A stretch of 64,000 nt of DNA from a virus: the IMG/VR virus record IMGVR_UViG_3300008110_010375. One strand, 5' to 3'. A program made the position numbers and the translations under genes. The stretch's first letter is position 1, and each line of letters begins with the position of its first letter. Of the stretch, positions 6,911 to 30,828 are shown one piece after another. The notes below the pieces were generated by a model that did not search any database, had not been told where the DNA came from, and saw nothing but the letters and a program-made list of their open reading frames with translations.

Positions 6911-7198
6911 ATGAGATACCTGTTACCCATAGCATTGATCTTATCCACGCCGGCGTTCGCTCAACCCTGCAGCGACGCCAACGAAGTTCATAAGCTTCTT
7001 GAGAAAGACTACAGCGAGAAGCCGTTCATCGAGATGGACGACAACCTTGGTCGTCACCTCGTCATCTACTTAAACGCGTCGACTCTTTCGTGGACCGCGG
7101 TCTCCTTGGATAAGGAGAAGAAAATCACGTGCGCGGTCGCAGCTGGAAGCAACTTCAAGCCTGCAAATCTCAAAGAATTCTTTGGTGACCCAAGCTGA
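6911..7198 (+). CDS. small exported protein
   Basis: GGAGG SD, signal peptide MRYLLPIALILSTPAFA. Confidence 0.7.
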   Translation: MRYLLPIALILSTPAFAQPCSDANEVHKLLEKDYSEKPFIEMDDNLGRHLVIYLNASTLSWTAVSLDKEKKITCAVAAGSNFKPANLKEFFGDPS

Positions 7199-8018
7199 TG
7201 AGAAACACCTCACCCTCGTATGCTACAGGAGTGGCTACGGGGGTGACTTCCTATGCGCACTCATCGATGAAGCCCTAGGTAACTCTAGCTTTCAATCGAG
7301 GGACGGGAACAATCGTTACTGGTTCGACAACTACGTATTCTCGTCCTGCAACAATCAGATTAAAAGCCTTCACCACATATTCTCATACTACTACGGTCAA
7401 GACAGCGTTCAACTCATCGACCAGCTTCTGGGTAAAGCTGAATGGGTCGATGAGATCAAGACGATCTACGATATGTGCTACGATGAGAACGAACAGTTCT
7501 TCATCGACAACATAATCTATCACATCACGAGCGGCCTGAGGCTTCCCTTCAGATACAACGTTGGAAACCTTCACTACATGGGTGAGTTTCCGGCGTTCGA
7601 CGTTGGTAAGATACACAGCCCGATGAGCATCGTCACGCTTAAGACGGAGAATGATCTATACTTTCAGTACTTCCATTCCTTCTCACAGATCAAGACGAAC
7701 TTCAAAGTTCTTAAGCGCGCTCGAGTGATGAAGAAGGAAGTGTTCGACTGCGAACCTATATCGAACTCTAGGATCATCGACGCCGGCAAGCTGTTCTTTG
7801 AGGATTCGCTCGACGATACGATATCGGATACGCTCTCTGAAATCATCGGACGTGAAGTGAAGATAAACATCGATGAGCTGAAAAGATACAGGAAAGACAA
7901 CGTTGAAGTGCTCGCGAAGTACTTCGGCGACGACTTTCAATCGCTAGACGCGGCGTCTTTCAGGGAGAGGAAGCTCGAGCTTTTTAGGAGAGTGGCCTCT
8001 GGCCAAGAGCTTCAATGA
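7182..8018 (+). CDS. GxxGxF-family paralogue 1 (putative sulfotransferase/P-loop-like fold)
   Basis: LVCYRSGYGGDF, CYDENEQFFIDNI, NLHY, DAGKLF. Confidence 0.7.
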   Translation: MVTQADEKHLTLVCYRSGYGGDFLCALIDEALGNSSFQSRDGNNRYWFDNYVFSSCNNQIKSLHHIFSYYYGQDSVQLIDQLLGKAEWVDEIKTIYDMCYDENEQFFIDNIIYHITSGLRLPFRYNVGNLHYMGEFPAFDVGKIHSPMSIVTLKTENDLYFQYFHSFSQIKTNFKVLKRARVMKKEVFDCEPISNSRIIDAGKLFFEDSLDDTISDTLSEIIGREVKINIDELKRYRKDNVEVLAKYFGDDFQSLDAASFRERKLELFRRVASGQELQ

Positions 8019-9676
8019 CCAACAGGTTGATCTTCGTCACGTATAAGGGTGGAAACTGCGGCGACTTCTTCTGCTTCCTTTTGAATAAAGCACTGGGCAA
8101 CGTTGATCCTTCTTACCAAGACGACACGAATCGCTGCGTCTTTAAGAACACTGCCTTCATCGATCACGGCATCAAGGGACTCGAGGAAGTATTCAGGCGA
8201 TACAACGGGCACAAATACATCATGGCCATCGATCAGATGGATAGGACCGGCCTCGAATACTTAGACTGGACCAGAAGAATACACGACTTCTGCTACGATG
8301 AAGACCGAGATCAGTTCATTAGAAACGTGCGCGACTACATTGGTGCCAACTTACACGTTTACGATAGAAACACCGTCGCGAGCATACACTACTACGACTA
8401 CTTTGATGGATTCACTTTAGCTGACGTCTATCAGCCGTCGACCACGATTCAGCTGATGACTGAAGACCCGCTATGTCACGCGTACTTCTTCTACCTTGCG
8501 AGGTACAAGCAACGATTCAGACTAATAAGAAACGCACCTGATTGGTATGATTTCATGGACGATCCTCCTATGGTTAATAAGCTTCCCTGCGACGTGACCA
8601 TCGTCGACTCAGGCAAGCTGTTCTTCGGCTCGAGCTACGATGATGAAGCCGAATCGATCTTGACAGATTCGCTTGGAATTGAGGTTAAATTTGATAGAGA
8701 AGTGTTGAACGTCTACCGCCAAAGCAACGAAAAGATTTTAGTCGATGGTTTCGGTAAGAACTACAGGAATATGTCTCTTATCGAATTTAGGACTGCGCGA
8801 AAAAAGATCTTTGAAGAGAACGTGTCTGAGTTCGTCAAGCTTCGCAGCTCCTTGTCGATGAAAGACTATCCGCAAGACTTCAATGAATACACGCAGCTGT
8901 TCTTAAGGGAGATCGATGAATGGATAAGATCACACCGATTCGTCGAGTACTATGGACTCGAGCATTTCCCAAGAAGAGACGTGATCCTTGGGACGACACA
9001 CCAGCTCGACGAGATTCACTGGGCCCACAAGGGACGGATCGCCGTGATGAACGGCGAGTACAAGTATCACCGAAGGCTGACTGACTATAAAGTCAAGCAG
9101 GTCAGTCATCACAGCGAGCTCTTCGAGGGCGACGTATTCGTCGTGTCGATGCCGAGCTGCATAACAACGAACGGTCACAGAGACTTTGAAGACTTGCTCG
9201 ATCATTGCTTGGCAAAGAAGATCCCAATACACATTGATGGGGCGTGGTTCGGTCAGTGCAAGAACTTTGAGCTCGACGTCTCACATCCAGCCATCAAGTC
9301 GGTCAGCGTCAGTTTATCAAAAGCGCTCGGCATGGGCAGCAACAGGATAGGGATACGATACACGCGCGAGAAGGTGAACGGACCGATCTCAATCATGAAC
9401 GACTTCGGCTACGTAAACGTATCAGACATGTGGCTCGGCGTCGAGAGCATGCGTAGGTTCGGAGCCGACTTCTGGTGGAAGAACTACGGCGACCTATATT
9501 CTAAAGTGTGTGAAGACTTCAAGCTTGAGGAGACCGACAGTATACATCTCGGAAGGCGTGGTGGTAAATACTACGGGATTCGAACGCCGCTTAGGTTATT
9601 GATCGACGGAACGTTTGACATCCGCGGCACCGACGCTGGTCTCAATGATATCGAGAAGAATGAAAGAAATGATTGA
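8015..9676 (+). CDS. GxxGxF-family paralogue 2 fused to a PLP-dependent (fold type I) domain
   Basis: N-terminal YKGGNCGDF; C-terminal HIDGAW and SLSKALG...RIG PLP motifs. Confidence 0.7.
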   Translation: MTNRLIFVTYKGGNCGDFFCFLLNKALGNVDPSYQDDTNRCVFKNTAFIDHGIKGLEEVFRRYNGHKYIMAIDQMDRTGLEYLDWTRRIHDFCYDEDRDQFIRNVRDYIGANLHVYDRNTVASIHYYDYFDGFTLADVYQPSTTIQLMTEDPLCHAYFFYLARYKQRFRLIRNAPDWYDFMDDPPMVNKLPCDVTIVDSGKLFFGSSYDDEAESILTDSLGIEVKFDREVLNVYRQSNEKILVDGFGKNYRNMSLIEFRTARKKIFEENVSEFVKLRSSLSMKDYPQDFNEYTQLFLREIDEWIRSHRFVEYYGLEHFPRRDVILGTTHQLDEIHWAHKGRIAVMNGEYKYHRRLTDYKVKQVSHHSELFEGDVFVVSMPSCITTNGHRDFEDLLDHCLAKKIPIHIDGAWFGQCKNFELDVSHPAIKSVSVSLSKALGMGSNRIGIRYTREKVNGPISIMNDFGYVNVSDMWLGVESMRRFGADFWWKNYGDLYSKVCEDFKLEETDSIHLGRRGGKYYGIRTPLRLLIDGTFDIRGTDAGLNDIEKNERND

Positions 9677-10328
9677 CTTTGGAAGCTTTGACTTCGACCT
9701 TGACTTAAAATCATTCCAAGATGAAGCTGAGCTCGCGCTCAACGGTCCAAGCGCGAAGGTGACTGGATCGAAGGGCCTCAATAAGTTCTACAATGTCGAG
9801 GGCGAAAGCAGGCGAAAGCTTATCGAATACTTCGACAATCACTTCCTCAAGAAGCTGATATGGCACGTCGAGTACTTCAACTCAGGCGAGCCGGCAGGTC
9901 TGCACACCGACGGCGCCGTATACAACGAGGGGTGCAAGACTGTTGTCGGCGTCATCATACCTCTCGCCTATAACACACATAAAGTCCCCTACACGGTGAC
10001 TTACGATCGCGTTCAGACCGAGTACAGGAAGCTTATGTTTAAGAACGGTGACATGCGTTATCTTGACACCGGCGAAATAGTTGAATATCGCGATAAATAT
10101 GAGTATGATCTGCTTAGTTTAAAGCATAATCCAAAAGGTACGCTCTACTACAAACAGTATGCCGACCTCAAAGTGCATGAGGAGTATGAATGGAAACTTG
10201 GCACTATGCTGATATTTGACACCCAGCGGTGGCACAGCTCATCTTGGTTCCTTTCAACACCAGATCTTCCAGATCATCTTGGTGAATACAAGAGATCAAT
10301 CATAGCTTTCGGTGACATAAAAAAATGA
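9669..10328 (+). CDS. 2OG-Fe(II) oxygenase-like protein
   Basis: LHTD and distal IFDTQRWHSS facial-triad motifs. Confidence 0.6.
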   Translation: MIDFGSFDFDLDLKSFQDEAELALNGPSAKVTGSKGLNKFYNVEGESRRKLIEYFDNHFLKKLIWHVEYFNSGEPAGLHTDGAVYNEGCKTVVGVIIPLAYNTHKVPYTVTYDRVQTEYRKLMFKNGDMRYLDTGEIVEYRDKYEYDLLSLKHNPKGTLYYKQYADLKVHEEYEWKLGTMLIFDTQRWHSSSWFLSTPDLPDHLGEYKRSIIAFGDIKK

Positions 10329-11191
10329 ACAAAAGAATTCTTGTCAACTATCAAGGTGGATACTGCGGAAGTTTCTTCTGCGGTTTAATCGCGCGTGCGC
10401 TGGATGTAGACCATATTTTAGAACATGATAATAAGATCAACATATACTACTATAGCAATAAAGACATCAAGACGATGTATGTTAAGACCTTTGGAAAACT
10501 TTTTGACATACGAAAAGGAGTGATCTCAAAAGAAGAGCTTAATGAGATCACTGAAAAAAAGTTAGATGCGTGTTACGTATATGCTAAGAATTTATATAAA
10601 ATTGTCGACGATGAAGATGAACAAGCATTTATTGAAAACATTAAAAGTTACTTTTCTGATTTAATGACTCTACAGAAGAGCGAGTATCTTATTGCGTCTA
10701 TTCATTACGCTTATAGATATAAAGACGTTGACATTCACGACATCTTTCCTGGTTCTACTATTCTTCATATCGTTACAGAAAACAAAAGACACGCAAGGTA
10801 TTTTCACCTTCTATATCACTATAAAACAAAAGACGATGAAACCGATAAAGTGCTTCAAAAAAATACTCTTACGTTGGAACAGATAAAGAAAGATTTTATT
10901 GATGTAATATCGCCCTCACCGTTTGATGACTCTTCTATTCATGTTGACATGGGTAAACTTATCTTTAACAGAGACTATGATCACTTCTCAGAGATTGAAC
11001 GTAAACTTTCTGAATCAATAGGAAAGTCCGTTGTGTTAGACAGAACCAAATTTTATGAATACGCCGATAGAAACATCGATATCATCAAAGGGATTTTAGG
11101 CGACGACTTCATGCAACAAACTGAGAAAGTTCAGATAGAGAAGTCGATCAAATTCATAGAAGGCGAAGTGCGTGTTAAGCGTCAACGATAA
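10325..11191 (+). CDS. GxxGxF-family paralogue 3 (AT-rich)
   Basis: YQGGYCGSF, SIHY, DMGKLIF. Confidence 0.7.
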   Translation: MNKRILVNYQGGYCGSFFCGLIARALDVDHILEHDNKINIYYYSNKDIKTMYVKTFGKLFDIRKGVISKEELNEITEKKLDACYVYAKNLYKIVDDEDEQAFIENIKSYFSDLMTLQKSEYLIASIHYAYRYKDVDIHDIFPGSTILHIVTENKRHARYFHLLYHYKTKDDETDKVLQKNTLTLEQIKKDFIDVISPSPFDDSSIHVDMGKLIFNRDYDHFSEIERKLSESIGKSVVLDRTKFYEYADRNIDIIKGILGDDFMQQTEKVQIEKSIKFIEGEVRVKRQR

Positions 11192-12032
11192 AACGCTAGT
11201 TGTCGTAGGATATTACGGTGGCTACGGCGGTTCGTTCTTCGCTAATATCTTAAGGAAAAGCATAGATTATAACTCGCCGCAGTTCACGCCTATAAACGAT
11301 AAGAATGAATATGGATTTGATACTCGTGTTCTTGGAATTGAAAGATATACTATAAACACACTGATGAAAGCCTATGATCAAGGCTTCGATGTACTTCTGA
11401 ACATTAAACTTTTTGAAAACACCGGCAATAAAGAAGACGCTGAGTTCGGTAAACTGGTGAAGAGGATGTACATAGATTGCTACGACAATGATCGTTCGGT
11501 GTTTTGTAGAAATCTGACGTTGTATCTTAAAAAAAGACTTAGACTTAAAGACGGATACAACGTAATTAACTCACATTATTCTAGAAAATTTAGTGGTTTT
11601 AGCATATACGATGTATATGATAAAACAATATTTTTTCTCTTAAGCTCCGAACACTCCATGCGATCAAAGCATCATTTACTTTTCGAAATGCTCATGGACT
11701 GTAAGAAAGATCGCTTCAGCTATCCAGAATTAATTAAACAGAGCTTGAACTCGTTAGATGGTAAGATAGAGCCTCCAAAACCATTTGATTCCTGTGTTTT
11801 ATTGGATGTTGGAAAGTTGTTTCTACAAACTAAAAACAATGGAATCGAAGAAATAGAACGTATCTTATCTGAGTCTTTGAATATGAAAATAAACCTTGAC
11901 AAAGAGGCGATTGTCGAATATACTAATTCAAATATAAAGCTTTTGAACAATTTTCTAGGCATAGAAATAGAAGACGCCAGCTTTGACGATGTTAAACAAG
12001 CTATAAAAAACAAGCTAAAATCACTGATATAA
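11172..12032 (+). CDS. GxxGxF-family paralogue 4 (AT-rich)
   Basis: YYGGYGGSF, CYDNDRSVF, NSHY, DVGKLF. Confidence 0.7.
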   Translation: MLSVNDKTLVVVGYYGGYGGSFFANILRKSIDYNSPQFTPINDKNEYGFDTRVLGIERYTINTLMKAYDQGFDVLLNIKLFENTGNKEDAEFGKLVKRMYIDCYDNDRSVFCRNLTLYLKKRLRLKDGYNVINSHYSRKFSGFSIYDVYDKTIFFLLSSEHSMRSKHHLLFEMLMDCKKDRFSYPELIKQSLNSLDGKIEPPKPFDSCVLLDVGKLFLQTKNNGIEEIERILSESLNMKINLDKEAIVEYTNSNIKLLNNFLGIEIEDASFDDVKQAIKNKLKSLI

Positions 12033-19132: not shown

Positions 19133-20251
19133 GTGAAGCCCCTTTGCTACGCACCCTTCATAGGTCTGTACGCATCTAACAAGGATGGGTACGCGCCCTG
19201 CTGCGTATCAAAGAAGTTCAACGACGCCGGACCGGAGCAATTCTGGTCCGGCGAAGTCATGTCTAGGATAAGGAAGTCCCTCCTGCTGGGAGAGTTTCCA
19301 GACAGCTGCGGCCTCTGCGCAAAGAAGGTGGCAAACAGATTAACCAGCGACGTCGACTACTGGGCGCATGAGTATAAGATGGCGGGTGAACCCGATACGT
19401 CGGATCCGAAGCCTATAATACTCGACTATAGACCATCCAACCAATGCAACTTAAAGTGTAGGATGTGCGGATCGGCTGCGTCTAGCTCGATCGAGAATGA
19501 AGTCGAGGCGAATCCGGGGCTGGCGAAGTGGTACGGAAAGCCTAAGCCTGAGCTTAACATCAACGATAAGATGATAGAATACGTTCAGTCTCTCGACTTA
19601 CTCAAGGTAAAGATACTTGGCGGTGAGCCGTCGATCGATCCCGGTGTCTGGGACTTCATGGCGGCGATGGCGAACAGGAAGCGCAAGCCGACGCTTAAAG
19701 TGACCACGAACGCAACGAGTATAAACCCTAAGTTCATAGAGCTTCTCAAAAAGTTTGACAAGCTTGAGATGACGTTCAGCGTCGACGCGATCGGCGACAC
19801 GTACGACTACATAAGGACCAACGCAAGATGGAAGAACACCGAGCGTAACATCTTAAGCTTCATGTCCAGCAACGACTGCAAGGTAAGCTTCAACGTGGTG
19901 TTGACTCCCTTCAACATCTTCTCACTCGACAAGCTGGTGGATTGGTTCTACGACCTTTGGTTCAGAGGCTATAAGTTCAAAGTAAACTTCGATGATTCCG
20001 ACGACTTGACGACCAGCCTCTCATCGGTTTTAGTGGTGCACGTCGACGACGCCCTCAACTCCTTAAATATAAAGAAGCTGCAGGCGATAGGATCACTCGA
20101 ACTCATAAGCATCCTTGAGAAGTCTGAGTTCGATCATTCCGCGCATGAATCTTTCAAGCGATTCGCCGCCGCTCTCGACAGGGTTAGAAAAACAAGATTG
20201 ACAGATCTAGATTATAGGTTCCATGAGTACATTGAAGAAGCTTCCATCTGA
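19133..20251 (+). CDS. twitch-domain radical SAM protein
   Basis: CYAPF..PCC..CGLC, CNLKCRMC, GGEP. Confidence 0.9.
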   Translation: MKPLCYAPFIGLYASNKDGYAPCCVSKKFNDAGPEQFWSGEVMSRIRKSLLLGEFPDSCGLCAKKVANRLTSDVDYWAHEYKMAGEPDTSDPKPIILDYRPSNQCNLKCRMCGSAASSSIENEVEANPGLAKWYGKPKPELNINDKMIEYVQSLDLLKVKILGGEPSIDPGVWDFMAAMANRKRKPTLKVTTNATSINPKFIELLKKFDKLEMTFSVDAIGDTYDYIRTNARWKNTERNILSFMSSNDCKVSFNVVLTPFNIFSLDKLVDWFYDLWFRGYKFKVNFDDSDDLTTSLSSVLVVHVDDALNSLNIKKLQAIGSLELISILEKSEFDHSAHESFKRFAAALDRVRKTRLTDLDYRFHEYIEEASI

Positions 20252-21617
20252 CACCTTCTGCATCCTACCATGGATACACCTAAGCACGAGACCCGACGGC
20301 TCGATGCGCGTATGCTGCACGGCGAACGCGTCGTCGGTCGGTCCTACGAACGATAAGGTTCACGGTGGACAGGTGGGAATCCTAAAGACCGAGGACGGCA
20401 AGCCCAACAACTTAAACGTCTCCGACTTCCTATCGAGCTGGAACTCCAGCTACATGAAGAACGTTCGCCTGCAGATGCTCGACGGTGAGAAGCCTCCGTC
20501 CTGCCTGAAGTGCTTCAAGGAGGAAGCGGCGGGCTACGTAAGCAAGCGCAAGTGGGAGACTGAGTACTGGTCGAAGCGCGTCGACATCGAGCGACTCATC
20601 GACAACACAAACTGGGACGGATCGGTTCCGCCTGAGCTCATATACATCGACTTGCGCTTCGGCACCAAGTGTCAGCTCGCATGCGTCATGTGCAGCCCTC
20701 ACGACAGCTCGGGTTGGATCAAGGATCACCAAGCGATCTTTCCACAGGTCAAGAACCAAGTACTCAAGCAGAACATGACGTGGAGCAACAAGGGATCTTT
20801 CAATGGATCATCCTACAACTGGCACAAGAACAACCCAAAGTTCTGGGAACAGTTCTACGAGCAGATACCAAACATGCAGCAGATCTACTTCGCTGGTGGT
20901 GAGAGCACCATCATCGAGGAACACTACGATATATTGGAGAAATGCATCGAGCTCGGCCACGCAAAGAACCTCGAGATCAGGTACAACTCGAACTCCGTTG
21001 AGTGGAGGGAAGATCTATTTGATCTATGGAGCCAGTTCAAGCTCGTGCGGTTTCACTACTCAGTGGATGACATCTTTGCGAGAAACGAGTACATCCGCTA
21101 TCCGTCGAAGTGGGAGCGCACTCAAGAAGTTTTTCACATACTTGACACGCAGACGCCCGACAACACCGAAGTGACAATCGCCTGCTCCGTGCAGTTCCTC
21201 AACGCCTACTACATCCCTGAGTTCATCAGGTGGAAGCTCGAGCAGAACTTCAAGAAGATAAACGTATGGCCTCAGACCGGCGGAGGCGTCAACTTTCACT
21301 TCGTCTATCACCCCGCCCACCTCAACGTCAAGGTGCTGCCCAAGTGGTTCAAGGCTGAGATACGTAGAAAGTACGAGGAGTTCATTCCTTGGTGGGAAGC
21401 GAACTGGCGAATGGGAGTGAGAGAGGACATCACCTACGACGAGTGGCGCAACAACAAGTACGGCGTCAAGACCCTGCACAGCATCCTCGACTTCATGGAG
21501 GCCGAGGACTGGAGCGTGCGTCTTCCCGAGACTCAGGAGTTCTTGAAGCTGTGCGACAAGCAGCGCGGGATAAGCTTCGAGGAAACGTTTCCAGAGATGC
21601 GAAATGTCTTTAGTTAA
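20223..21617 (+). CDS. twitch-domain radical SAM protein
   Basis: FCILPW..VCC..CLKC, CQLACVMC, GGE. Confidence 0.9.
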   Translation: MSTLKKLPSDTFCILPWIHLSTRPDGSMRVCCTANASSVGPTNDKVHGGQVGILKTEDGKPNNLNVSDFLSSWNSSYMKNVRLQMLDGEKPPSCLKCFKEEAAGYVSKRKWETEYWSKRVDIERLIDNTNWDGSVPPELIYIDLRFGTKCQLACVMCSPHDSSGWIKDHQAIFPQVKNQVLKQNMTWSNKGSFNGSSYNWHKNNPKFWEQFYEQIPNMQQIYFAGGESTIIEEHYDILEKCIELGHAKNLEIRYNSNSVEWREDLFDLWSQFKLVRFHYSVDDIFARNEYIRYPSKWERTQEVFHILDTQTPDNTEVTIACSVQFLNAYYIPEFIRWKLEQNFKKINVWPQTGGGVNFHFVYHPAHLNVKVLPKWFKAEIRRKYEEFIPWWEANWRMGVREDITYDEWRNNKYGVKTLHSILDFMEAEDWSVRLPETQEFLKLCDKQRGISFEETFPEMRNVFS

Positions 21618-22470
21618 GGACGCGATACGCCAGTACAATGAGTTTTGGACGGGCGACGTCGACCCTGAATTCTATGAGTTCGGCGGGCTTCCGATACCGC
21701 TTTCGTTCTCATGGAAGCGCGTCTGCGTCAACTTATCCGGAGGCGCCGACAGCGCCCTGCTCATGGCCGCCCTGTGCAAAGTCATAATCGACAACGGTCT
21801 TAACACGAAAGTCGACGCCATAAGCTTCGCCAGGTGCTGGAGCAATCGACCGTGGCAGCCGTTCATAGGCGAAGCGGTGTTTAAGAAGATCAAGTCGATG
21901 TTTCCCGACGTGGTCGGCGTTCAGCACAAACCCTTCATAGCACCTGAGCTTGAGCACGCGGCCATCGGCTTCTTGACAGAAGACAACAAGAGTGCGTCGT
22001 CGATAACCACGAGAAGCTTCAACGACTTTCACTGCTTCTACAACGAAGACGTCGGAGCGGTGTTTCACGGCAGGACCAAGAACGCCCGCGACCTTCAAGA
22101 CCATCCGTGGAGGATGCAGGTTCGAGACGATCCACGCGAGGAGGATATGATCGAGCGACTGGAGCACTCGGAGAAGTATGTCTTCAGGCCTCTGCTGCTG
22201 GTGGAGAAGGACTGGGTCGTCGATCAGTACATTAGGAACGATTGGATGGAGTTGTTCGACACGACTCGAAGCTGCGAGGCGAACATCGATGAGTTCAACA
22301 GGGGCTGGAGATACAAAGCGGAAGATCCCATAGTCGAGTGTGGTGTATGCTATTGGTGCGTCGAGAGAAACTGGTCTTTGAAGAAGACGTTTGGATCGAC
22401 GTTGGTCTTCGAGGAAGTGGCGGCGGATAAATACGGTAATGGCCAACCTATCGATAAACGAACTTCTTAA
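21604..22470 (+). CDS. QueC-like PP-loop ATPase
   Basis: LSGGADS, TRSC, CGVCYWC. Confidence 0.75.
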   Translation: MSLVKDAIRQYNEFWTGDVDPEFYEFGGLPIPLSFSWKRVCVNLSGGADSALLMAALCKVIIDNGLNTKVDAISFARCWSNRPWQPFIGEAVFKKIKSMFPDVVGVQHKPFIAPELEHAAIGFLTEDNKSASSITTRSFNDFHCFYNEDVGAVFHGRTKNARDLQDHPWRMQVRDDPREEDMIERLEHSEKYVFRPLLLVEKDWVVDQYIRNDWMELFDTTRSCEANIDEFNRGWRYKAEDPIVECGVCYWCVERNWSLKKTFGSTLVFEEVAADKYGNGQPIDKRTS

Positions 22471-23728
22471 GCCGGGACGAGAGTTTAGATCGGCAAAGAT
22501 AGTTGAGAAGATGAAGTCCGGCAGCCCATTTGAGCTCGACACCGGAACCAAAGTCGTTCTTCTCTATGATAAAAACGTTGAAGACATCCTTCTTGATAAG
22601 AACAAGCTTTCAAAAGCTAAGAACATAGAGTTCACGACCAAGACCAACCAAAAGATCCCGCTGACTAAGATAAAGAAGAACTCTGAGTTTGGTGGAGCTG
22701 GGGGATCAGGATTGGGCGCCAAGGGTACGGCTATCGCGGAGTCGCTTCACGCTCTGTACGCTCAAGCCATCTTCGACTACGGATCAACTTCCGTCGACGC
22801 TTTGACGAAAGCTTCGAAGACGATCGATGTGACCGAGAGTCTGAATGATATGCTCAGCATGCCCGACGACTGGATAAAGTCGGCCGAAGCTTCGGCGAAG
22901 ATAATTCTATCAAACTTCAAGAGCGGAAAGAAGGTTCGCTTTCACCGAGGCTCGAGGTGGGTCAAGGCGCTTGAAGAAACTTTCAACAGGTTGAACAAGC
23001 AGCACGGCTCGTTCTCAGACATCAACAAGTGGTCGCCCGCTGACATATACCTCATCAGTGAAGCGGGATCAAAGATCGACTTCAGCAAGGCGAAGAACCT
23101 CACCGACTTAAACTCAATGATGTTCAGCGCTCTCAAGAGCAAAGACGTAGTCGGCATATCTCTGAAGAAGGTCGTCGGCAACGGCCACCTCAGCTTCTAC
23201 AACGTAGGCGATAAAAAGAAGAAGATCGAATTCAAGGACTACACCGTCGGTAAGACTGGCTTCTTTAATTCAAAAGACACGTTCATATTCTTCGAGGTCG
23301 ACGGACAACTTCAGATGAGAACCTTCCCATCGTTCCAAGGTGAGATCAAGGGTAAGAACGCCAGTCAAGGTAAGATAGGCTACGGCGGAATCGCGTCGAT
23401 CATTAGAACTAAGCTGAACGCCACGGCCCCCGACATCAACGCGACGAAAGCGAAGATAAAGGCGAAAGACTCAGACTTTCTCAAGAGCTTCTACGAGCTA
23501 TACCTAACCTTAAGCAAGGACGGCGGCAAGGTCAAGTACGACGAGTTCGTCAAGAAGTCATACGAACTAAACGAGGAGTGGATGCTTTCAAAGTACCTCG
23601 GCTCCTCATTGATCGACGTGCTTCTCAAGACTAAAATCAAGGACGGCAGGAACCTGTTCGTCTCGGCGATAGTCGACTACGCGGCTTCTTCGACAGACCT
23701 ATCGGGTCCATTCGCTAAGATTCAATAA
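22439..23728 (+). CDS. putative PD-(D/E)xK endonuclease
   Basis: AIAES, NKWSPADIY, GISLKK. Confidence 0.55.
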   Translation: MANLSINELLKPGREFRSAKIVEKMKSGSPFELDTGTKVVLLYDKNVEDILLDKNKLSKAKNIEFTTKTNQKIPLTKIKKNSEFGGAGGSGLGAKGTAIAESLHALYAQAIFDYGSTSVDALTKASKTIDVTESLNDMLSMPDDWIKSAEASAKIILSNFKSGKKVRFHRGSRWVKALEETFNRLNKQHGSFSDINKWSPADIYLISEAGSKIDFSKAKNLTDLNSMMFSALKSKDVVGISLKKVVGNGHLSFYNVGDKKKKIEFKDYTVGKTGFFNSKDTFIFFEVDGQLQMRTFPSFQGEIKGKNASQGKIGYGGIASIIRTKLNATAPDINATKAKIKAKDSDFLKSFYELYLTLSKDGGKVKYDEFVKKSYELNEEWMLSKYLGSSLIDVLLKTKIKDGRNLFVSAIVDYAASSTDLSGPFAKIQ

Positions 23729-23749
23729 ATAGTTTTTTAGGGAACGCAC

Positions 23750-24397
23750 ATGAAGACTTTTACAGACTTTCTGACCGAAGCAGCCGGCGCCAAGCTCAAA
23801 CACCTTGAGCATCCCGAGGACAACGCCGTGACTTCAGCCGCCGGCTTCACCCACGCTTTCAAGGCGCTTCACGACGTTCACAAGGCGCTGAAGGGTCAGA
23901 AGAGCACCTCGCACGTCACCACCAAGCTCGACGGATCGCCGTCGATAGTGTTCGGTCGCCATCCTCAGACGGGTAAGTTCTTCGTCGCATCGAAGTCGGC
24001 GTTCAACAAGAATCCAAAGATCAACTACAGCCACGAAGACATCGATCGCAACCACGGTCACTCACCGGGACTCGCATCGAAGCTCAAGCAGGCGCTTGAG
24101 CACCTACCGAAGGTGACGCCTAAGAAGGGCGTCTATCAGGGCGACTTCATGCACTCGCACGACGACAGGCACGAAACTGACACGCACGTTCACTTCAAGC
24201 CGAACACCATCAGCTACTCAATCAAGAAGAGCTCGCCCGAAGGTCAGAAGGCCGTCAAGTCGAAGATCGGCGTCGCGGTTCACACCAAGTACGAAGGAAA
24301 GAGCTTGGAAGACATGCACGCTACTCCACACGTTGACCATGAAAACTTCAAGCAGCATAGAGATGTACATCTAATCTCTACACAGGCTAAGATTTAA
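23750..24397 (+). CDS. RNA-ligase-like (DUF6267-like) protein, N-terminal half
   Basis: MKTFTDFLTE leader, HLEHPED, KLDG (motif I), YQGDF (motif III). Confidence 0.7.
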   Translation: MKTFTDFLTEAAGAKLKHLEHPEDNAVTSAAGFTHAFKALHDVHKALKGQKSTSHVTTKLDGSPSIVFGRHPQTGKFFVASKSAFNKNPKINYSHEDIDRNHGHSPGLASKLKQALEHLPKVTPKKGVYQGDFMHSHDDRHETDTHVHFKPNTISYSIKKSSPEGQKAVKSKIGVAVHTKYEGKSLEDMHATPHVDHENFKQHRDVHLISTQAKI

Positions 24398-25314
24398 TGG
24401 GTGATTGGTCAAAATTAATAACAGTTAACTTTGTAGGTGGTTATTGTGGAGATTTCATTTGCTCTCTTGTGTATAACAGCTATTATGGCTCTCAAGTAGA
24501 TTTTTTTAATAGTGTAACCAAAGCTAAATTTAGTCCTAACATGGCGAGCTTTAAAAATATAGCTTTTGAAGGTGAAGGACTAAGAAACTTTGATATGATT
24601 ACTAATCTTTATTATAATAATGATTTTTATTCAACGTTCGTTAATGATATCAATAGAGTTAGTGATAATATAGATTTTTTTGATTATGCTTATTCCCATG
24701 TTGCAAAAATTTATAGAACTTGTTATGATCCCGACAAACAAACATTTATTAATAATGTTCTTGACTACTGCAGAAATGTAGTCCCTAGTGATCTAAAAGA
24801 TTTTACAATTATTACTCATCATTCTACTGATACTAGAATTCCAGAATTCAAATTTAGTAACATTTTTTTAGGATCACATAATATTGCTATTGTTAGCTCT
24901 GATTCAAAATTTGACAGATATTTTAGACTTTTAGGATATCATAAGTTTTATAAAAGATTATATACAGATAGAACATTAAAACAAGCATTTCAACAGATGA
25001 GAGCTTTAGAATCAGAATTTTTGATAAGTTGTGAAAGATCTGTTCTTAACGATATGGGTGAAATTAAAATTTACGTAGATAAATTTCTTTTCAGCAATGA
25101 CTTTACATATGTTAAACAAATGGAAGATATATTTTCTTCTATAATGGGAAAGCAAATAGTCTTTAACAAAGATGCTATTAAAACATATAGAGAAAACAAT
25201 AGAAAGATTTATTCACGATACTTAAACATCCCAGAAGATTTTGATCATGTTGATCCAATCAATGTATCAAAGATAAATGCTTTTATGGATGATGTAGAGG
25301 GTAAGAATGTCTAA
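24397..25314 (+). CDS. GxxGxF-family paralogue 5, AT-rich insertion
   Basis: FVGGYCGDF, CYDPDKQTFINNV; abrupt AT-rich codon usage. Confidence 0.75.
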   Translation: MGDWSKLITVNFVGGYCGDFICSLVYNSYYGSQVDFFNSVTKAKFSPNMASFKNIAFEGEGLRNFDMITNLYYNNDFYSTFVNDINRVSDNIDFFDYAYSHVAKIYRTCYDPDKQTFINNVLDYCRNVVPSDLKDFTIITHHSTDTRIPEFKFSNIFLGSHNIAIVSSDSKFDRYFRLLGYHKFYKRLYTDRTLKQAFQQMRALESEFLISCERSVLNDMGEIKIYVDKFLFSNDFTYVKQMEDIFSSIMGKQIVFNKDAIKTYRENNRKIYSRYLNIPEDFDHVDPINVSKINAFMDDVEGKNV

Positions 25315-25849
25315 TTTAACCAAAGAACACAGTGATGCATTTGAACATCACATGGCAAAAGCAAAAGAGATTCATGACAAGCAGCCTCATGACTTTCACG
25401 ACATCGTTGGGAAGCACGCCGAACACATCACGACGTACATAAACCAAACGGTGCGCAGCGGTACGAAGCCGACGACCAAGGGTCTTAGGGCACACATCGC
25501 GGCTAGACACCAGAAGAACATAGACGCGGTCAGCACACCAGCGGCCAAGGCGAAGAAGACGGAGTCGATGAACGCCGATCTCGCACATCACGACACCCAT
25601 GAGCAGCACTTTGTAAACGCTCTCAAGATACACCATCACATCCAAGCGGCCAAGGACATATTGGTCGACGGTTTGAACAAAGCCTCGAAGCAGCACAACC
25701 CACTCGAGCACCACATCGATGGGAAGGAGACGCATCCCGAAGGCTACGTCGCACATCACAATGGACAGTCGATTAAACTAGTGAACAGGGGCGAGTTCTC
25801 ACGAGCGAACTTCGCGGCGACTAAAGCATGGAAGACTGGTCAAAGCTGA
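25307..25849 (+). CDS. RNA-ligase-like (DUF6267-like) protein, C-terminal half
   Basis: PEGYV (motif IV), KLVNRGEFSRANF (motif V); His-rich like the N-terminal half. Confidence 0.7.
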   Translation: MSNLTKEHSDAFEHHMAKAKEIHDKQPHDFHDIVGKHAEHITTYINQTVRSGTKPTTKGLRAHIAARHQKNIDAVSTPAAKAKKTESMNADLAHHDTHEQHFVNALKIHHHIQAAKDILVDGLNKASKQHNPLEHHIDGKETHPEGYVAHHNGQSIKLVNRGEFSRANFAATKAWKTGQS

Positions 25850-26550
25850 TCACCATAAACTACCCGCACGGGTACCATGGTGACTTCATCGCATGCCTCA
25901 TAACCAACACCAAGCCGATTCTCAGCGAGGGCCTCACCGCGACCTACACGACTCCAGAGGTGACGTCGTCGTTCGGTGTAAAGAACCTCGATGCGATCGT
26001 TGGTATGCACCTAAGCATGGACTGCAGGCACGTCTTATTCGATGATGAGTCTGAGTTCGCCAGAAGACAGGTTAACTACTACAGCCAGCTTCACGGCGAA
26101 GACTTTAGGCAGAACTTGAAAGAAGACCTTCGCTGGAAGCTCGATCACCTGCACGGAGTGAAGACGGTCTTCAACACCCACTACTGCAAGCACCAATCTT
26201 TCCTTCCGCTGCAAGAGGTGTTTCCCGGATCCCTCAACGTCTACCTTACGCTTGAGAACCCCAACAACAAACGAATATATGACTTCTTGTTTGAGCATAA
26301 GATACTGCACCACTACAGAAACATGACGGCGTATAGGTTCTATAGAAACCATCACAGCGATCCTCGAGACGCCGAGAAACCCATATACGTCGACAGGCTC
26401 ATGGCCGAAGATGGATACGTGTACGCGAAGATCGTTGAGCACATGTTCGACAGCTGGTTCGACCTCGAGGCCTTAAGCGAATACAAGCGACTGAACAAAG
26501 AACTACTTCTACAGAATGGATACGAATATGAAGCTCTTGATCACTGGTAA
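25828..26550 (+). CDS. GxxGxF-family paralogue 6
   Basis: MEDWSKLITINYPHGYHGDF, NTHY, VFPGS. Confidence 0.7.
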   Translation: MEDWSKLITINYPHGYHGDFIACLITNTKPILSEGLTATYTTPEVTSSFGVKNLDAIVGMHLSMDCRHVLFDDESEFARRQVNYYSQLHGEDFRQNLKEDLRWKLDHLHGVKTVFNTHYCKHQSFLPLQEVFPGSLNVYLTLENPNNKRIYDFLFEHKILHHYRNMTAYRFYRNHHSDPRDAEKPIYVDRLMAEDGYVYAKIVEHMFDSWFDLEALSEYKRLNKELLLQNGYEYEALDHW

Positions 26551-27094
26551 CCCTGAGTTCGGTCTAGCCAGAGCGCTGCATGAGATATACCCCGACGCCG
26601 ATTTTATAAGCAGGAAGACCGGTCACGACCTATGTAAGAAGGAGCATAGGCGATGGGTCGCCGTCGAGTGCATCGGGTACGACGTCTTAATAAACAACTC
26701 CGCCCTACACGAGTTCAACCAGACCCTATTGCTCGAGGAGGTGTACACCGCCGCTCTGAAGTACAGCCATAACCTGCACATCATAAACATCGGCAGCACC
26801 ACGGACAAAACGAACTCATCGCGCGTCTGGATGTACAACGCCGAGAAGAAGGCGCTCAGGGACGTCAACAACACGATGGGTCTCGCGGCAAACTGGAGGA
26901 AGGATGAGGGGCCTAAGGTGACCTACATAAGCTTCGGTACGCTATCGAACAACCAGCACAAGCACCCCGATCGCAGGTGCATAGACATCGAGCAGGCGGC
27001 GAGGTATATAAAGTGGGTGGTGGATCAACCCAAGTACTTGTCTATAAATGAGTTGAGCATCGACAGGATGCAGAGTGACACATGGATCAGCTGA
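26528..27094 (+). CDS. short-chain dehydrogenase/reductase-like protein
   Basis: LITG...GL, INNS, NIGS, YxxxK. Confidence 0.75.
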   Translation: MKLLITGNPEFGLARALHEIYPDADFISRKTGHDLCKKEHRRWVAVECIGYDVLINNSALHEFNQTLLLEEVYTAALKYSHNLHIINIGSTTDKTNSSRVWMYNAEKKALRDVNNTMGLAANWRKDEGPKVTYISFGTLSNNQHKHPDRRCIDIEQAARYIKWVVDQPKYLSINELSIDRMQSDTWIS

Positions 27095-28191
27095 GCTGGA
27101 GCAACTACGACTTCACCAAGATACCGTTCGACAGGATCGTGAAGGTCGGTCAGCGAACGATGCTGTATCGCGATATGTTCGTGGTGAGCTGGATCCTTGG
27201 TAGGTTCTGCAACTACAACTGCTCCTACTGCTGGCCGTACGCAAACAGCCGCACCAAGGATCACCGACCGACCGAGCTCTGCCTCAAGACGATCGATGAG
27301 ATCAAGCGCCAGTCGCGAAGGAACGGCTTCAACAGCTACCACTTCAGCTTGTCGGGAGGCGAGCCGACCTTCCATCCGGGATACCTAGACATACTTCAGC
27401 ACCTAGCCGACGACGTCCCAAACTGCAACTACACCTCGGTCCACATGACGTCGAACTGCTCGCAGAGCATGAAGTTCTTTGAGAAGTACGTTCGCATCGC
27501 GTCGAACTTCAACCGAGCGTCGGTGACCGCGAGCTTTCACAAGGAGCACCTCAACACGCCTGAGAAGGTCGCGGAGTTCGCCGACAAGCTTGAGTTCTTT
27601 CAGAGCTGGGACATACAGGTCACGATCAACATGGTCATGGTGCCGCAGTGGTTCTATGAGCTCTACGACGAGGCGATGTACTTCCACGATCGCGGGATCA
27701 ACGTCACGCTCAAGCCGCAGAGCGACCCTAAGGCTTCGGTCGTCGTTCCGGGATACACCGACCACATGCTGCAGATCCTATGGAACGGGATGCCGCAGAG
27801 GTTCTTCACCGACACCAAGAAGAAGTTCATCAGGCCCAAGCCTAAGAAGCCCTTGGAAGACATCGCGATTGAGAACGACAACAAGGTTCCTCAGGACTTT
27901 CAGGTCGAGCTCACCGACGAGCTCGGGAACAAGTGGTACATGGATCAGTCGGAGAGGTTCAACGCCTTCAACTTCAATAAGTTCGAGGGATGGATGTGCA
28001 ACTCAGGATACCAGTCCTGCATCATCCGCGAGCCCGATGGGTCGATCAAGAGAAGCTACAGCTGCCACGACAAGCCGCTCGGAAACATCGAGACCGGATT
28101 CGAGCTCTTTCCTAAACCGGTCATATGCACGACCAAGACCTGCGTCTCAAGCGCGGACAGCAAGATACCAAAGAGGTTGATGAATGTCTAA
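27082..28191 (+). CDS. radical SAM protein with C-terminal Cys domain
   Basis: CNYNCSYC, GGEP. Confidence 0.9.
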   Translation: MDQLSWSNYDFTKIPFDRIVKVGQRTMLYRDMFVVSWILGRFCNYNCSYCWPYANSRTKDHRPTELCLKTIDEIKRQSRRNGFNSYHFSLSGGEPTFHPGYLDILQHLADDVPNCNYTSVHMTSNCSQSMKFFEKYVRIASNFNRASVTASFHKEHLNTPEKVAEFADKLEFFQSWDIQVTINMVMVPQWFYELYDEAMYFHDRGINVTLKPQSDPKASVVVPGYTDHMLQILWNGMPQRFFTDTKKKFIRPKPKKPLEDIAIENDNKVPQDFQVELTDELGNKWYMDQSERFNAFNFNKFEGWMCNSGYQSCIIREPDGSIKRSYSCHDKPLGNIETGFELFPKPVICTTKTCVSSADSKIPKRLMNV

Positions 28192-28855
28192 CCAACAGTT
28201 TACGGTGAAGCAAGTTCCCGGATACGAAGCAAAAGTCAGGCGTGAGAAGATCGACGACGTCGATGAGTGGCTCTGGCCTTGGGACGACCAAGGCCTATGG
28301 CTCGGGCCGAGTCAGGAGTGGTCACCGATCAAGGAGCTGATCCTTGAACACTGCCCATCTAGACATACGGTGTTGCAGGCCGGAGGCGCCTGCGGCATGT
28401 ACCCGAGGCTGCTGTCGAACATATTCGAGCGGGTGGTGACGTTCGAGCCCGATCCGATCAACTTCTTCTTCCTATCGCACAACTGCAAGGACAAGCGCAT
28501 CACCAAGATCAACGGGGTCTTAGGCAACGAGAACAGGTGGTCAACCTTCTGCTACCCAGCGGAAAACAACCGAGGAACCGGATCGATCAACTTCAACGCC
28601 GACGATCCTACGGCCGGCGACACCGTGATGTTCCGCGGGGACAGCATGGTCTTTAAGAAGCTTGACCTGATCTACCTCGACATCGAGGGCGGAGAGTACA
28701 ATGCAATCACAGGATTGATAAATACAATTAGACTACATAAACCCGTAATCATATGTGAAAACGCGCACGCCGGACCATTAGACTACCTGACTCAGTTCGG
28801 ATACAAGGCGATCGCGCGATCTCACTCAGACACCCTAATGAAGATCGAAGAATGA
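28184..28855 (+). CDS. FkbM-family methyltransferase
   Basis: QAGGACG, FEP, LDIEGGE. Confidence 0.85.
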   Translation: MSNQQFTVKQVPGYEAKVRREKIDDVDEWLWPWDDQGLWLGPSQEWSPIKELILEHCPSRHTVLQAGGACGMYPRLLSNIFERVVTFEPDPINFFFLSHNCKDKRITKINGVLGNENRWSTFCYPAENNRGTGSINFNADDPTAGDTVMFRGDSMVFKKLDLIYLDIEGGEYNAITGLINTIRLHKPVIICENAHAGPLDYLTQFGYKAIARSHSDTLMKIEE

Positions 28856-30828
28856 GCACTAACGACACCGGAACTTCAGGGTCCCCTAAGGGCAGCAAGA
28901 AGCTTCAAGCTCGAAAGGTCAATGACGACATTGAGAAGAAGGGTGCCACGATCAGCGGCGGGAAGCCTAACCCGATCAACATCAATCCGGTTCAGGAGCA
29001 GGCCGAGCAGACGGCCGTCACAAACCTCAACATGAGGGCGCAGCCTCTCCATAAAGGGCACGTCAAAGTCATACAGGCGGTCGAGGACGAAGCCAAGCGC
29101 GTCGGCGGATCGGCCCACATCGTCACCTCGCACTCAGAGGGCGACGAGAAGAACCCGATTCCCGTGTCTAAGAAGATGAGCTACCTGCGCAAGGTGGCCT
29201 CCCAAGGCACGCACGTCATGTCGACGTCTAGGGAAGCACCGAGCCCGCTTCACACCGCGGCGCGTCTCAACAGGCACGCCCACCACCTAGTCGTGGTCGC
29301 GGGCAGCGATCGCGCCGGCGAGTACGAGAAGCTTCTCAACAAGTACAACGGTAAAGAGGGCCCTCACGGGTACTACAACTTCAAGTCGATCAAGGTCAAG
29401 TCGATAGGACGCGATCCCGACGCCGAGGGAACCGAGGGGATCTCCGGCACCAAGATGCGTGAGCACGCCAAGAGCGGGAACATCTCCGGATTCAAAGCGG
29501 GACTTCCACCTGAGCTGCACCAGCACGCGGAGGAGATGATGAGCGACATCAACAAATCAAGCAAGAAGAAGGTCAGGGAGAGCGTTGATGAGACGTTCAC
29601 CGAGAAGTTCATCGACACAGCGGACACCGAGAAAGTTCTCGAAGCGATCGAGACCGCACACCGCGAAGCCCTCGCCCGCAGGGGAGACAGGAAGAAGCTC
29701 GAGTACGTCGCGCGCAAGGACCAAGATCGCAAGACGAGCTCGGTGCCGTATCGCCAAGACTCGATAAAGAAGCAGATCGTCGACGAGGACGCGCTCAACG
29801 TTTCCCTCAACAACAAGTTCAAGACCGCTTCGACACCTAAGCTTCCGAATACAAAAGACTTCAATCCATCCATGTTCAAAGACAAACCAGCGGGCGCGAA
29901 GATGCCGAACACCAAAGACTTCAACCCACCGATGTTCAACAAGGAAGCCTACGGCAAGGGATACAAATCGCCCGCGGACAAGATCGCCGCTGCCGCTAAG
30001 AGGTTGGGAAAGAAGGACCCGCTTCAGGGCATGGCTGACGCCGCTGAGAGGCTCAAGCAGAACGCCGCCGACTATCAGAAGATAGTCGATAAAGACAAGA
30101 AGAACGAAGAGGTCGAGCGTGTCGATGAAGTCTCAAAAGAATTGATAGGTCAAGTGAACAAGAAGCGCACCCTGCAGAACATCCCGTCGAAGACTAAGAA
30201 GGCTTCCGACGTCCTCAACCGCGGTCTCATGCGCGCGGCTGGAATCAAGCCGCCGGTTCAGAAGGAAGAAGCCGTCGAAGAGGAGCGCAAGGGTCTTTGG
30301 GCGAACATCTGGGCTAGGCGCCGCGCCGGCAAGCGGATGCGCAAGCCCGGTGAAAAGGGCGCGCCGTCGGCTGAAGCTTTGAAGTCGGCTCAAGAGTCGA
30401 TTGAGATCGATGAAGCGGCGAGCGCAGGTTTAGCGGCTAAGGCGAGCAAGTCGGGCATATCACTCTCTACGCTACAGAAAGTCTACCGCCGCGGCGTGGC
30501 TGCATGGAACTCAGGACACCGTCCCGGCACCACACCACAGCAGTGGGGCATGGCTCGAGTCAACTCCTACATCGCCAAGGGCAAGGGAACATACGGCGGC
30601 GCCGACAAAGACCTTCACGAGATGGAGGAGAACTACTCTTCCAGCAACCCAAAGTACCACGCGGGATTAAGCGCGTCGACAAAAGCGGCACGCGTCGCAC
30701 ACTGGAAGCGTGCCGACAAGATGTCTGATCGCGATCCACGTGCTTACGAGCCAGCGCCGGGTGATAAGACCGCGAAGACGAAACCAAGCAAGTACACGAA
30801 AGCGTACCACAAGAAGTACGGAGACTGA
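28852..30828 (+). CDS. HxGH nucleotidyltransferase fused to basic virion-type modules
   Basis: QPLHKGH, GSDR, ISGTKMR; C-terminal VYRRG..AW..GHRPG..QWGMARVNS module. Confidence 0.75.
   Translation: MSTNDTGTSGSPKGSKKLQARKVNDDIEKKGATISGGKPNPININPVQEQAEQTAVTNLNMRAQPLHKGHVKVIQAVEDEAKRVGGSAHIVTSHSEGDEKNPIPVSKKMSYLRKVASQGTHVMSTSREAPSPLHTAARLNRHAHHLVVVAGSDRAGEYEKLLNKYNGKEGPHGYYNFKSIKVKSIGRDPDAEGTEGISGTKMREHAKSGNISGFKAGLPPELHQHAEEMMSDINKSSKKKVRESVDETFTEKFIDTADTEKVLEAIETAHREALARRGDRKKLEYVARKDQDRKTSSVPYRQDSIKKQIVDEDALNVSLNNKFKTASTPKLPNTKDFNPSMFKDKPAGAKMPNTKDFNPPMFNKEAYGKGYKSPADKIAAAAKRLGKKDPLQGMADAAERLKQNAADYQKIVDKDKKNEEVERVDEVSKELIGQVNKKRTLQNIPSKTKKASDVLNRGLMRAAGIKPPVQKEEAVEEERKGLWANIWARRRAGKRMRKPGEKGAPSAEALKSAQESIEIDEAASAGLAAKASKSGISLSTLQKVYRRGVAAWNSGHRPGTTPQQWGMARVNSYIAKGKGTYGGADKDLHEMEENYSSSNPKYHAGLSASTKAARVAHWKRADKMSDRDPRAYEPAPGDKTAKTKPSKYTKAYHKKYGD

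Follow-up and report, generated by a model that had tools for sequence, protein, structure and literature searches.

When two halves of an enzyme gene lie on either side of a third gene, is the gene between them the one that broke it? The question is raised by a locus in 64,000 nucleotides (nt) of viral DNA from IMG/VR record IMGVR_UViG_3300008110_010375 (the whole stretch analysed, hereafter the window), where two open reading frames (ORFs) of the DUF6267 family enclose an AT-rich gene. An earlier note, made from the sequence alone, had described them as the halves of an RNA-ligase-like gene split by the AT-rich one; its coordinates, ligase-type motifs, TAATG junction and 8-nt overlap were all confirmed, and its view of what caused the split was not. 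We favour, at a probability of about 0.78, an account in which an older fission of a ligase-fold gene was followed by the arrival, through recombination, of an AT-rich cargo gene at the existing junction. The locus would then hold a two-subunit protein of RNA-ligase fold, split long ago and apparently functional, together with a recently acquired cargo gene at the junction. A gene between two halves need not be the splitter, and an existing split junction is an ordinary gene boundary open to foreign genes. The split ligase-fold family, not the insertion, is the most interesting part. The elements of the locus are as follows.

22439-23728, plus strand: gene upstream of the ligase halves, 429 amino acids (aa), matching phrog_1462 (expect value, E, 8e-51); context, outside the split
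23750-24397, plus strand: amino-terminal (N) half of DUF6267 (PF19782), 215 aa; starts MKTFTDFLTE and holds most of the nucleotidyltransferase domain
24395-24399, plus strand: TAATG, in which the N-half stop overlaps the start of the inserted gene; read directly
24397-25314, plus strand: inserted AT-rich gene, 305 aa, the putative cargo; 27.5% guanine plus cytosine (GC)
25297-25301, plus strand: GAGGG, Shine-Dalgarno-like, inside the 3' end of the inserted gene and 5 nt before the C-half ATG
25307-25849, plus strand: carboxy-terminal (C) half of DUF6267 (PF19782), 180 aa; helical bundle and last strands of the nucleotidyltransferase domain
25307-25390, plus strand: opening stretch of the C half, similar to a low-GC lineage and probably flank carried in with the insert
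25828-26550, plus strand: resident paralogue of the insert family, 240 aa, of normal GC, also present in insert-free relatives

The five ORFs between 22439 and 26550 are packed tightly. The overlap of insert and C half spans 8 nt (25307-25314) and was, like TAATG, read directly; the GAGGG just before it would serve as the ribosome site of the C half, judging from its sequence and spacing. The insert is the most AT-rich 900-nt stretch within the 64 kb, with a GC content at third codon positions (GC3) of 18% against 64-84% in the neighbouring genes and an overall GC of 51% in the window. As had been noted before, AT-rich sequence reaches slightly into both halves, GC declining from near 24300 and recovering near 25380. 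By their coordinates, the N and C halves share a reading frame in the window.

DUF6267 and the RNA ligases

Both halves pass the PF19782 gathering threshold of 27 bits, and their matches are complementary: the N half covers profile positions 2-196 of 376 (E 1.5e-64, 219 bits) and the C half positions 204-376 (E 7.6e-31, 108 bits). Both also match phrog_455. Motif I, KLDG, occupies residues 59-62 of the N half (K59-L-D-G62), which carries QGDF as well, and motif IV, EGYV, occupies residues 145-148 of the C half (E145-G-Y-V), where K157, the K of KLV, is the motif V lysine. Across an alignment of 33 homologues (numbered on an unsplit homologue), K61, D63 and G64 of motif I are invariant, as are Q132-G133-D134; with the conserved PNTIxY (153-158), the latter are candidates for motifs III and IIIa. 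E359-G360-x-V362 and K371 are retained in about 90% of sequences, as a sequence-pattern match only.

A structure model was built with the same 33-sequence alignment on an unsplit homologue, L018 (389 aa, 63% identity to the N half), and reached a predicted local distance difference test score (pLDDT) of 90.5 and a predicted template modelling score (pTM) of 0.87. An exhaustive structure search with this model placed the Naegleria nick-sealing RNA ligase NgrRnl (5cot) first (Z score 10.3, 184 residues aligned), with further matches to Trypanosoma brucei REL1 (Z 9.5), T4 Rnl2 (Z 9.0 and 8.4), T4 Rnl1 (Z 8.4) and fungal Trl1 (Z 8.1); many ATP-dependent DNA ligases came next (Z 6-7.8), and ligases made up 14 of the 15 top matches. 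The alignments used model residues from about 15 to 385, namely the strands at 57-211 and the last strands at 348-372, and skipped a helical bundle at 224-341; both ends of the protein therefore take part in the ligase fold. The best Foldseek matches in the PDB were DNA ligases, weakly (E 0.009-0.3), and named RNA ligases were among the remote matches in a viral structure library. Sequence searches of the PDB with the N half and with the DUF6267 profile gave no meaningful match, and our literature search found no paper that names DUF6267; in the P-HM2 record the family appears as cyanophage gene cluster T4-GC 71 with no assigned function.

The modelled structure and the motifs together support a reading of DUF6267 as RNA-ligase-like at the level of fold and motif, as had been proposed from the motifs, and thereby place a family without a function among the RNA ligases. 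Like the ATP-dependent RNA ligases NgrRnl, REL1, T4 Rnl2 and T4 Rnl1, DUF6267 has an adenylyltransferase fold (Z 8.4-10.3 over 176-187 residues), an invariant KxDG, and a conserved EGxV and motif V lysine. Unlike the known RNA ligases, it shares only 10-15% identity with them and has no sequence match to any PDB chain, and the model predicts an adenylyltransferase domain into which a bundle of helices, about 120 residues long, is set between the N-side strands and those of motifs IV and V. In the clade of the window, again unlike known RNA ligases, the domain is spread over two polypeptides. A remote parallel is the heterodimeric DNA ligase of phage PR1 (PDB 9hu3, known to us from the title of its entry), which likewise consists of two polypeptides and matches the fold at Z 5.3; a literature search on heterodimeric phage ligases found nothing usable. 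Finally, DUF6267 is fused in some phages to a cytidylyltransferase-like domain (e.g. a 591-aa protein of S-PM2). The two parts are united in phrog_455, and the window has a cytidylyltransferase-like gene at 28852-30828.

Several other features of the family were observed. Both halves are rich in histidine (22 of 215 residues, or 10.2%, in the N half and 23 of 180, or 12.8%, in the C half), spread along the sequence; the corresponding figures are 2.0% for the insert and 0.9% for the upstream gene. DUF6267 proteins begin with MxxFxxF(L/I)xE, in which M1 and E10 are nearly invariant, and residues 1-14 are disordered in the model. This leader lies at 23750-23779 in the window, at L003:4051-4080 and at L084:2859-2888 in two related loci, and resembles the T4 capsid-targeting peptide, MKTYQEFIAE. 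The strict form of the motif is fitted in the window by the N half only, and an unrelated 317-aa gene upstream of the split pair in L003 starts MLTFFDFMLE. A 201-aa protein matching the polynucleotide-kinase family phrog_415 (E 1.5e-9) is encoded directly upstream of the unsplit DUF6267 gene in L018 (4399-5004), and in L013 (3380-3985) this ORF is separated from the downstream DUF6267 gene by one other gene. The protein has no significant Pfam match; together with DUF6267 it would fit an RNA end-healing and sealing pair.

Position and age of the split

Alignment of the halves to full-length homologues, as the earlier note proposed, shows them to be complementary. On the model, the break falls in a loop (residues 212-223) that leads from the final strand of the N side to the helix at 224-242. 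Split forms have 21 residues across it and unsplit ones 22; nothing was lost and no tails were gained. Since motif I belongs to the N polypeptide and motifs IV and V to its C partner, activity would require the two to assemble into one active site. The large clade described below, which keeps motif I apart from motifs IV and V on separate chains, would constitute a natural split covalent nucleotidyltransferase.

The gene had been described as a single polypeptide in other T4-like phages. It is unsplit in the cultured cyanophages P-HM2 (PHM2_162, 1221 nt) and C48C1 (CDS0087, 1224 nt), and likewise in 45 distinct IMG/VR homologues of 377-452 aa; relatives at or below 64% identity form a single ORF of this length. 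Nearer to the window the picture changes. In ten loci that lack the insert (L003-L011 and L087, 77-94% identity), the N ORF stops where it does in the window, and nine of them start the C ORF there in another frame through an ATGA overlap, which joins the two where the window has TAATG; in the tenth, L004, the contig ends first. The nine closest among the best 80 IMG/VR relatives of the N half all belong to this set: three (L003-L005) show 89-94% identity to the N half at about 50% GC, and six (L006-L011) show 77-80% at about 36% GC. Since close relatives without the insert are already split at the same point, the insert is not the cause of the split: the split is older.

The split form is also widespread. 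In a collection of 5.8 billion proteins we found about 50 clusters of stand-alone N halves (215-226 aa, ending ...DVH(L/M)ISPEAKL(K/S), in part from contigs of 90-229 kb); C halves standing alone (172-179 aa) make up 42 clusters. A maximum-likelihood tree of the N-terminal region gathers 53 split forms, the window included, into one clade (Shimodaira-Hasegawa-like approximate likelihood ratio test, SH-aLRT, 99). Within this clade the homologues are normally two genes, which the earlier note had named as speaking against its account. The window lies deep inside, beside the insert-free L003, P0005 and L005.

A second small clade holds four apparently split forms among unsplit ones, and the tree therefore needs two state changes. 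These four (P0040, P0056, P0057 and P0060) are a separate group of 215-aa N-half-like proteins that end ...DVHIIDTETK and are nested among unsplit forms. They may represent an independent fission at the same loop, and two 238-aa proteins, P0286 and P0287, could be their C halves.

Could the AT-rich gene, in its present or an ancestral form, have split an intact gene after all, with the relatives then losing it precisely, leaving ATGA behind, and the window preserving the original state? We regard this as quite unlikely. The insert does sit exactly at the split point, the mosaic flanks described below imply at least one other lineage with the insert at the junction, and there is a precedent in phage Aeh1, where the mobile endonuclease gene mobE split nrdA into two working genes, nrdA-a and nrdA-b, and left essential tail sequences (PMC3045599). 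As in Aeh1, an enzyme gene of a T4-like phage is found here in two kept ORFs around a free-standing gene; unlike in Aeh1, the insert is no recognisable nuclease, the split predates it and there are no tails, with 21 residues across the break where unsplit forms have 22. Moreover, the window is nested deep in the 53-member clade and its nearest members are insert-free, so that many independent and exact losses would be required. The insert's GC3 of 18% beside neighbours at 64-84% argues for recent arrival, and the synonymous divergence (dS) between the window and the insert-free L003 is already about 0.9-1.2.

That the gene was inactivated by the insertion, leaving decaying remnants, is highly improbable. 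Nothing beyond the interruption itself speaks for it; both ORFs are of full length and every conserved motif is present. The ratio of nonsynonymous to synonymous substitution (dN/dS), for the window against L003 and L005, is 0.046-0.060 in the N half and 0.055-0.061 in the C half, at a dS of 0.9-1.6, and values among the insert-free relatives are similar. These ratios (about 0.05) support strong purifying selection on both halves, as expected of a two-subunit protein. Of the two outcomes offered by the earlier note, a two-subunit enzyme or splicing and bypassing, the first accords with this and the second does not hold up. We give almost no credence to a single ligase polypeptide made by removing the insert (as an intein or a group I or II intron) or by skipping it through translational bypass. 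The shared frame of the two halves in the window is what such a scheme would need; against it, relatives without the insert make two ORFs in different frames, and one conserved ORF fills the 918-nt insert end to end. The insert is fully coding, with its own ATG and TAA in another frame, and overlaps both flanking ORFs. Rfam, searched over 23500-26200 with E values up to 1 admitted, returned nothing; the insert is flanked by neither direct nor inverted repeats; and more than 25 stop codons interrupt the N-half frame within it. These three results exclude read-through as well as an intein, an intron or an element of transposon type.

Nature and arrival of the inserted gene

The inserted gene has no Pfam or PHROG match. 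Its protein found nothing by tblastn against phage records or in a single-sequence IMG/VR scan, but a profile search of 1.8 billion representatives returned a family of 120 clusters at 50% identity, almost all of 270-310 aa. Homologues were found at 99% (P0001), 63% (P0002), 47% and 34% identity. The N-terminus of the family is a strand, a Gly-rich loop (GGxCGDF) and a helix, and G15, G18, F20, H142, K183 and Y264 are conserved. A Pfam scan of 92 family members gave scattered chance matches only, with no nuclease family among them; the insert had been thought not to be a nuclease, and none was recognised in Pfam or PHROGs. A protein-atlas model of the insert (pTM 0.72) is nearest to unnamed viral clusters (template modelling, TM, score 0.55-0.58), with bacterial sulfotransferase families at TM 0.47-0.50 and one feature match named sulfotransferase (0.96). 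The protein may thus have a sulfotransferase-like fold, a lead and no demonstration: the sulfotransferase Pfam models PF00685 and PF13469 match none of the 92 members, PDB sequence searches with two insert-family profiles gave nothing meaningful, and our own AlphaFold2 model, made on five sequences, was unusable (pLDDT 52).

The insert had also been taken for one of a set of paralogues, correctly so: it is distantly related (21-25% identity) to the window ORFs at 7182-8018, 8015-9676, 10325-11191 and 25828-26550 (21% to the last). The five members of this GGxxGDF family range from 27.5% to 50% GC, and 10325-11191 and the adjacent 11172-12032 are both of low GC (about 35%). The varied composition of the five suggests that genes of this family were acquired repeatedly and at different times.

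How did this one reach the junction? The ligase halves of the window are closest to L003 throughout (94% identity to its stand-alone N half, 89% to its C half), except beside the insert. There, in 30-nt windows over the opening 55-85 nt of the C half, the low-GC lineage (L006) reaches 73-93% identity and L003 40-70%; beyond about 25375, L003 is again the closer of the two. At sites of fixed difference, the C-half head has seven of the low-GC type and three of the L003 type, and the sequence downstream four and 29 (Fisher p 9e-4 at the best breakpoint, 25390-25417, uncorrected). The end of the N half shows a weaker shift (p 8e-3, likewise at the best breakpoint and uncorrected). In addition, the window has one codon gained in the head of the C half and one lost at the end of the N half, both in common with the low-GC lineage. 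As a protein, the C half reads as a chimera: in its head, MSNLTKEHSDAFEHHMAKAKEI, 19 of 22 residues match a 177-aa type (P0248, P0250), and the rest matches a 179-aa type that starts MSLSKQES. Because the C-half head matches this low-GC sister lineage, the insert and its flanks probably came together, through homologous recombination, from a low-GC phage of the split clade in which the gene already stood at the junction.

The whole sequence of events that we favour would then run as follows. Within a large clade of uncultured relatives of the T4-like cyanophages, the phage of the window among them, the DUF6267 gene would have broken in the loop before the bundle, yielding two translationally coupled ORFs with an ATGA overlap. 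The N ORF would bear the motif I lysine and the C ORF the helical bundle and the strands of motifs IV and V, and the two polypeptides would assemble into one active site. Much later, and in the window's own lineage, a foreign AT-rich gene would have been set exactly at the ORF junction, by homologous recombination with a low-GC relative already carrying it there; the transfer would have brought with it some 55-85 nt of C-half sequence and perhaps also the final 40-100 nt of the N half. The outcome would be the present three-cistron string of N half, TAATG, cargo, an 8-nt overlap with its own GAGGG, and C half, with both halves intact. The insert would be passive cargo at an already permissive site and not the splitter.

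In several respects the insert resembles moron-type cargo. It is a single foreign gene of deviant composition lying exactly between two cistrons, and its paralogues stand among nearby radical SAM and SDR-like genes. Unlike moron-type cargo, its boundary lies within what is a single gene in most relatives, and it has neither a flanking terminator nor a convincing promoter of its own. Promoter-like and terminator-like sites are as numerous as in shuffled controls, with no excess of terminators. A near-consensus sigma-70-like site (TTGATA, 17 nt, TATAAT; 11 of 12 positions) does lie inside the insert at 24590-24618, directed toward the C half; the overall count of such sites equals that of the shuffled controls.

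The metagenome scan for insert homologues returned the 47% homologue alone (L083-L085, L088-L090), where it lies after an unsplit 377-aa DUF6267 gene and before the resident paralogue and has a GC of 28% against 35-44% in its neighbours. The insert subfamily therefore occurs at different gene boundaries around DUF6267. At L084:4880-4960 the resident paralogue is without its usual MEDWSK start and begins inside the end of the 47% homologue, with a LIT(V/I)N motif following; this may be a recombination joint within the conserved N-terminal motif of the family. An assembly chimera, which the extreme jump in composition might suggest, deserves next to no weight, given that each end of the insert coincides exactly with a gene junction at which stop and start codons overlap, that a 99% identical protein is present in an independent public assembly, and that the 47% homologue occupies the same gene neighbourhood in L084.

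Several points tell against the older fission and later cargo as we have set them out. The mosaic test is of moderate strength, and AT-biased change beside an AT-rich insert could mimic part of the signal. Among the contigs recovered, which do not include those of P0001 (99%) and P0002 (63%), none is a donor in which N half, insert and C half follow one another. The N halves found only in databases were called split from their length and shared C-terminal ending, the adjacent C ORF being seen directly in nine loci. Assembly of the halves and ligase activity are predictions, and the sulfotransferase-like reading of the cargo comes from protein-atlas similarity alone, with no Pfam or PDB sequence match and a poor model of our own.

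A broader and rather unlikely version of the favoured account may also be entertained. In it the fission would have made an inter-cistronic landing site at which cargo is exchanged by recombination in the conserved halves, and the product would be a two-subunit RNA-repair ligase, packaged in the head and injected, whose C half enters the capsid by way of the N half, the sole bearer of the MKTFTDFLTE leader.

The upstream gene and the neighbourhood

The gene at 22439-23728 had been read as a PD-(D/E)xK gene that might mobilise the insert, and we found no evidence for this. It has no Pfam match, and the case for a nuclease consists of weak protein-atlas leads to restriction endonucleases (feature scores 0.85-0.86, rated as leads only). 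A phrog_1462 gene stands before the unsplit, insert-free DUF6267 gene of P-HM2 (26% identity to that of the window), and L003 has the unrelated-looking 317-aa gene in its place. The upstream gene is a variable neighbour of DUF6267, with nothing that ties it to the insert.

Downstream, the resident paralogue at 25828-26550 is 67% identical to L003:6166-6897, which holds the same position. A megablast search of 21600-27100 against phage records gave no match, and the region therefore has no close cultured relative. Around the ligase halves (20223-21617, 21604-22470, 26516-27094 and 27082-28191) are encoded two radical SAM proteins, one of them with a SPASM-like match under the Pfam threshold, a PP-loop/QueC-like protein and an SDR-like protein. 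In P-HM2 the cytidylyltransferase genes directly follow the ligase-like gene, and for this reason the block at 25828-28855 looks like an island between DUF6267 and the cytidylyltransferase-like gene at 28852-30828.

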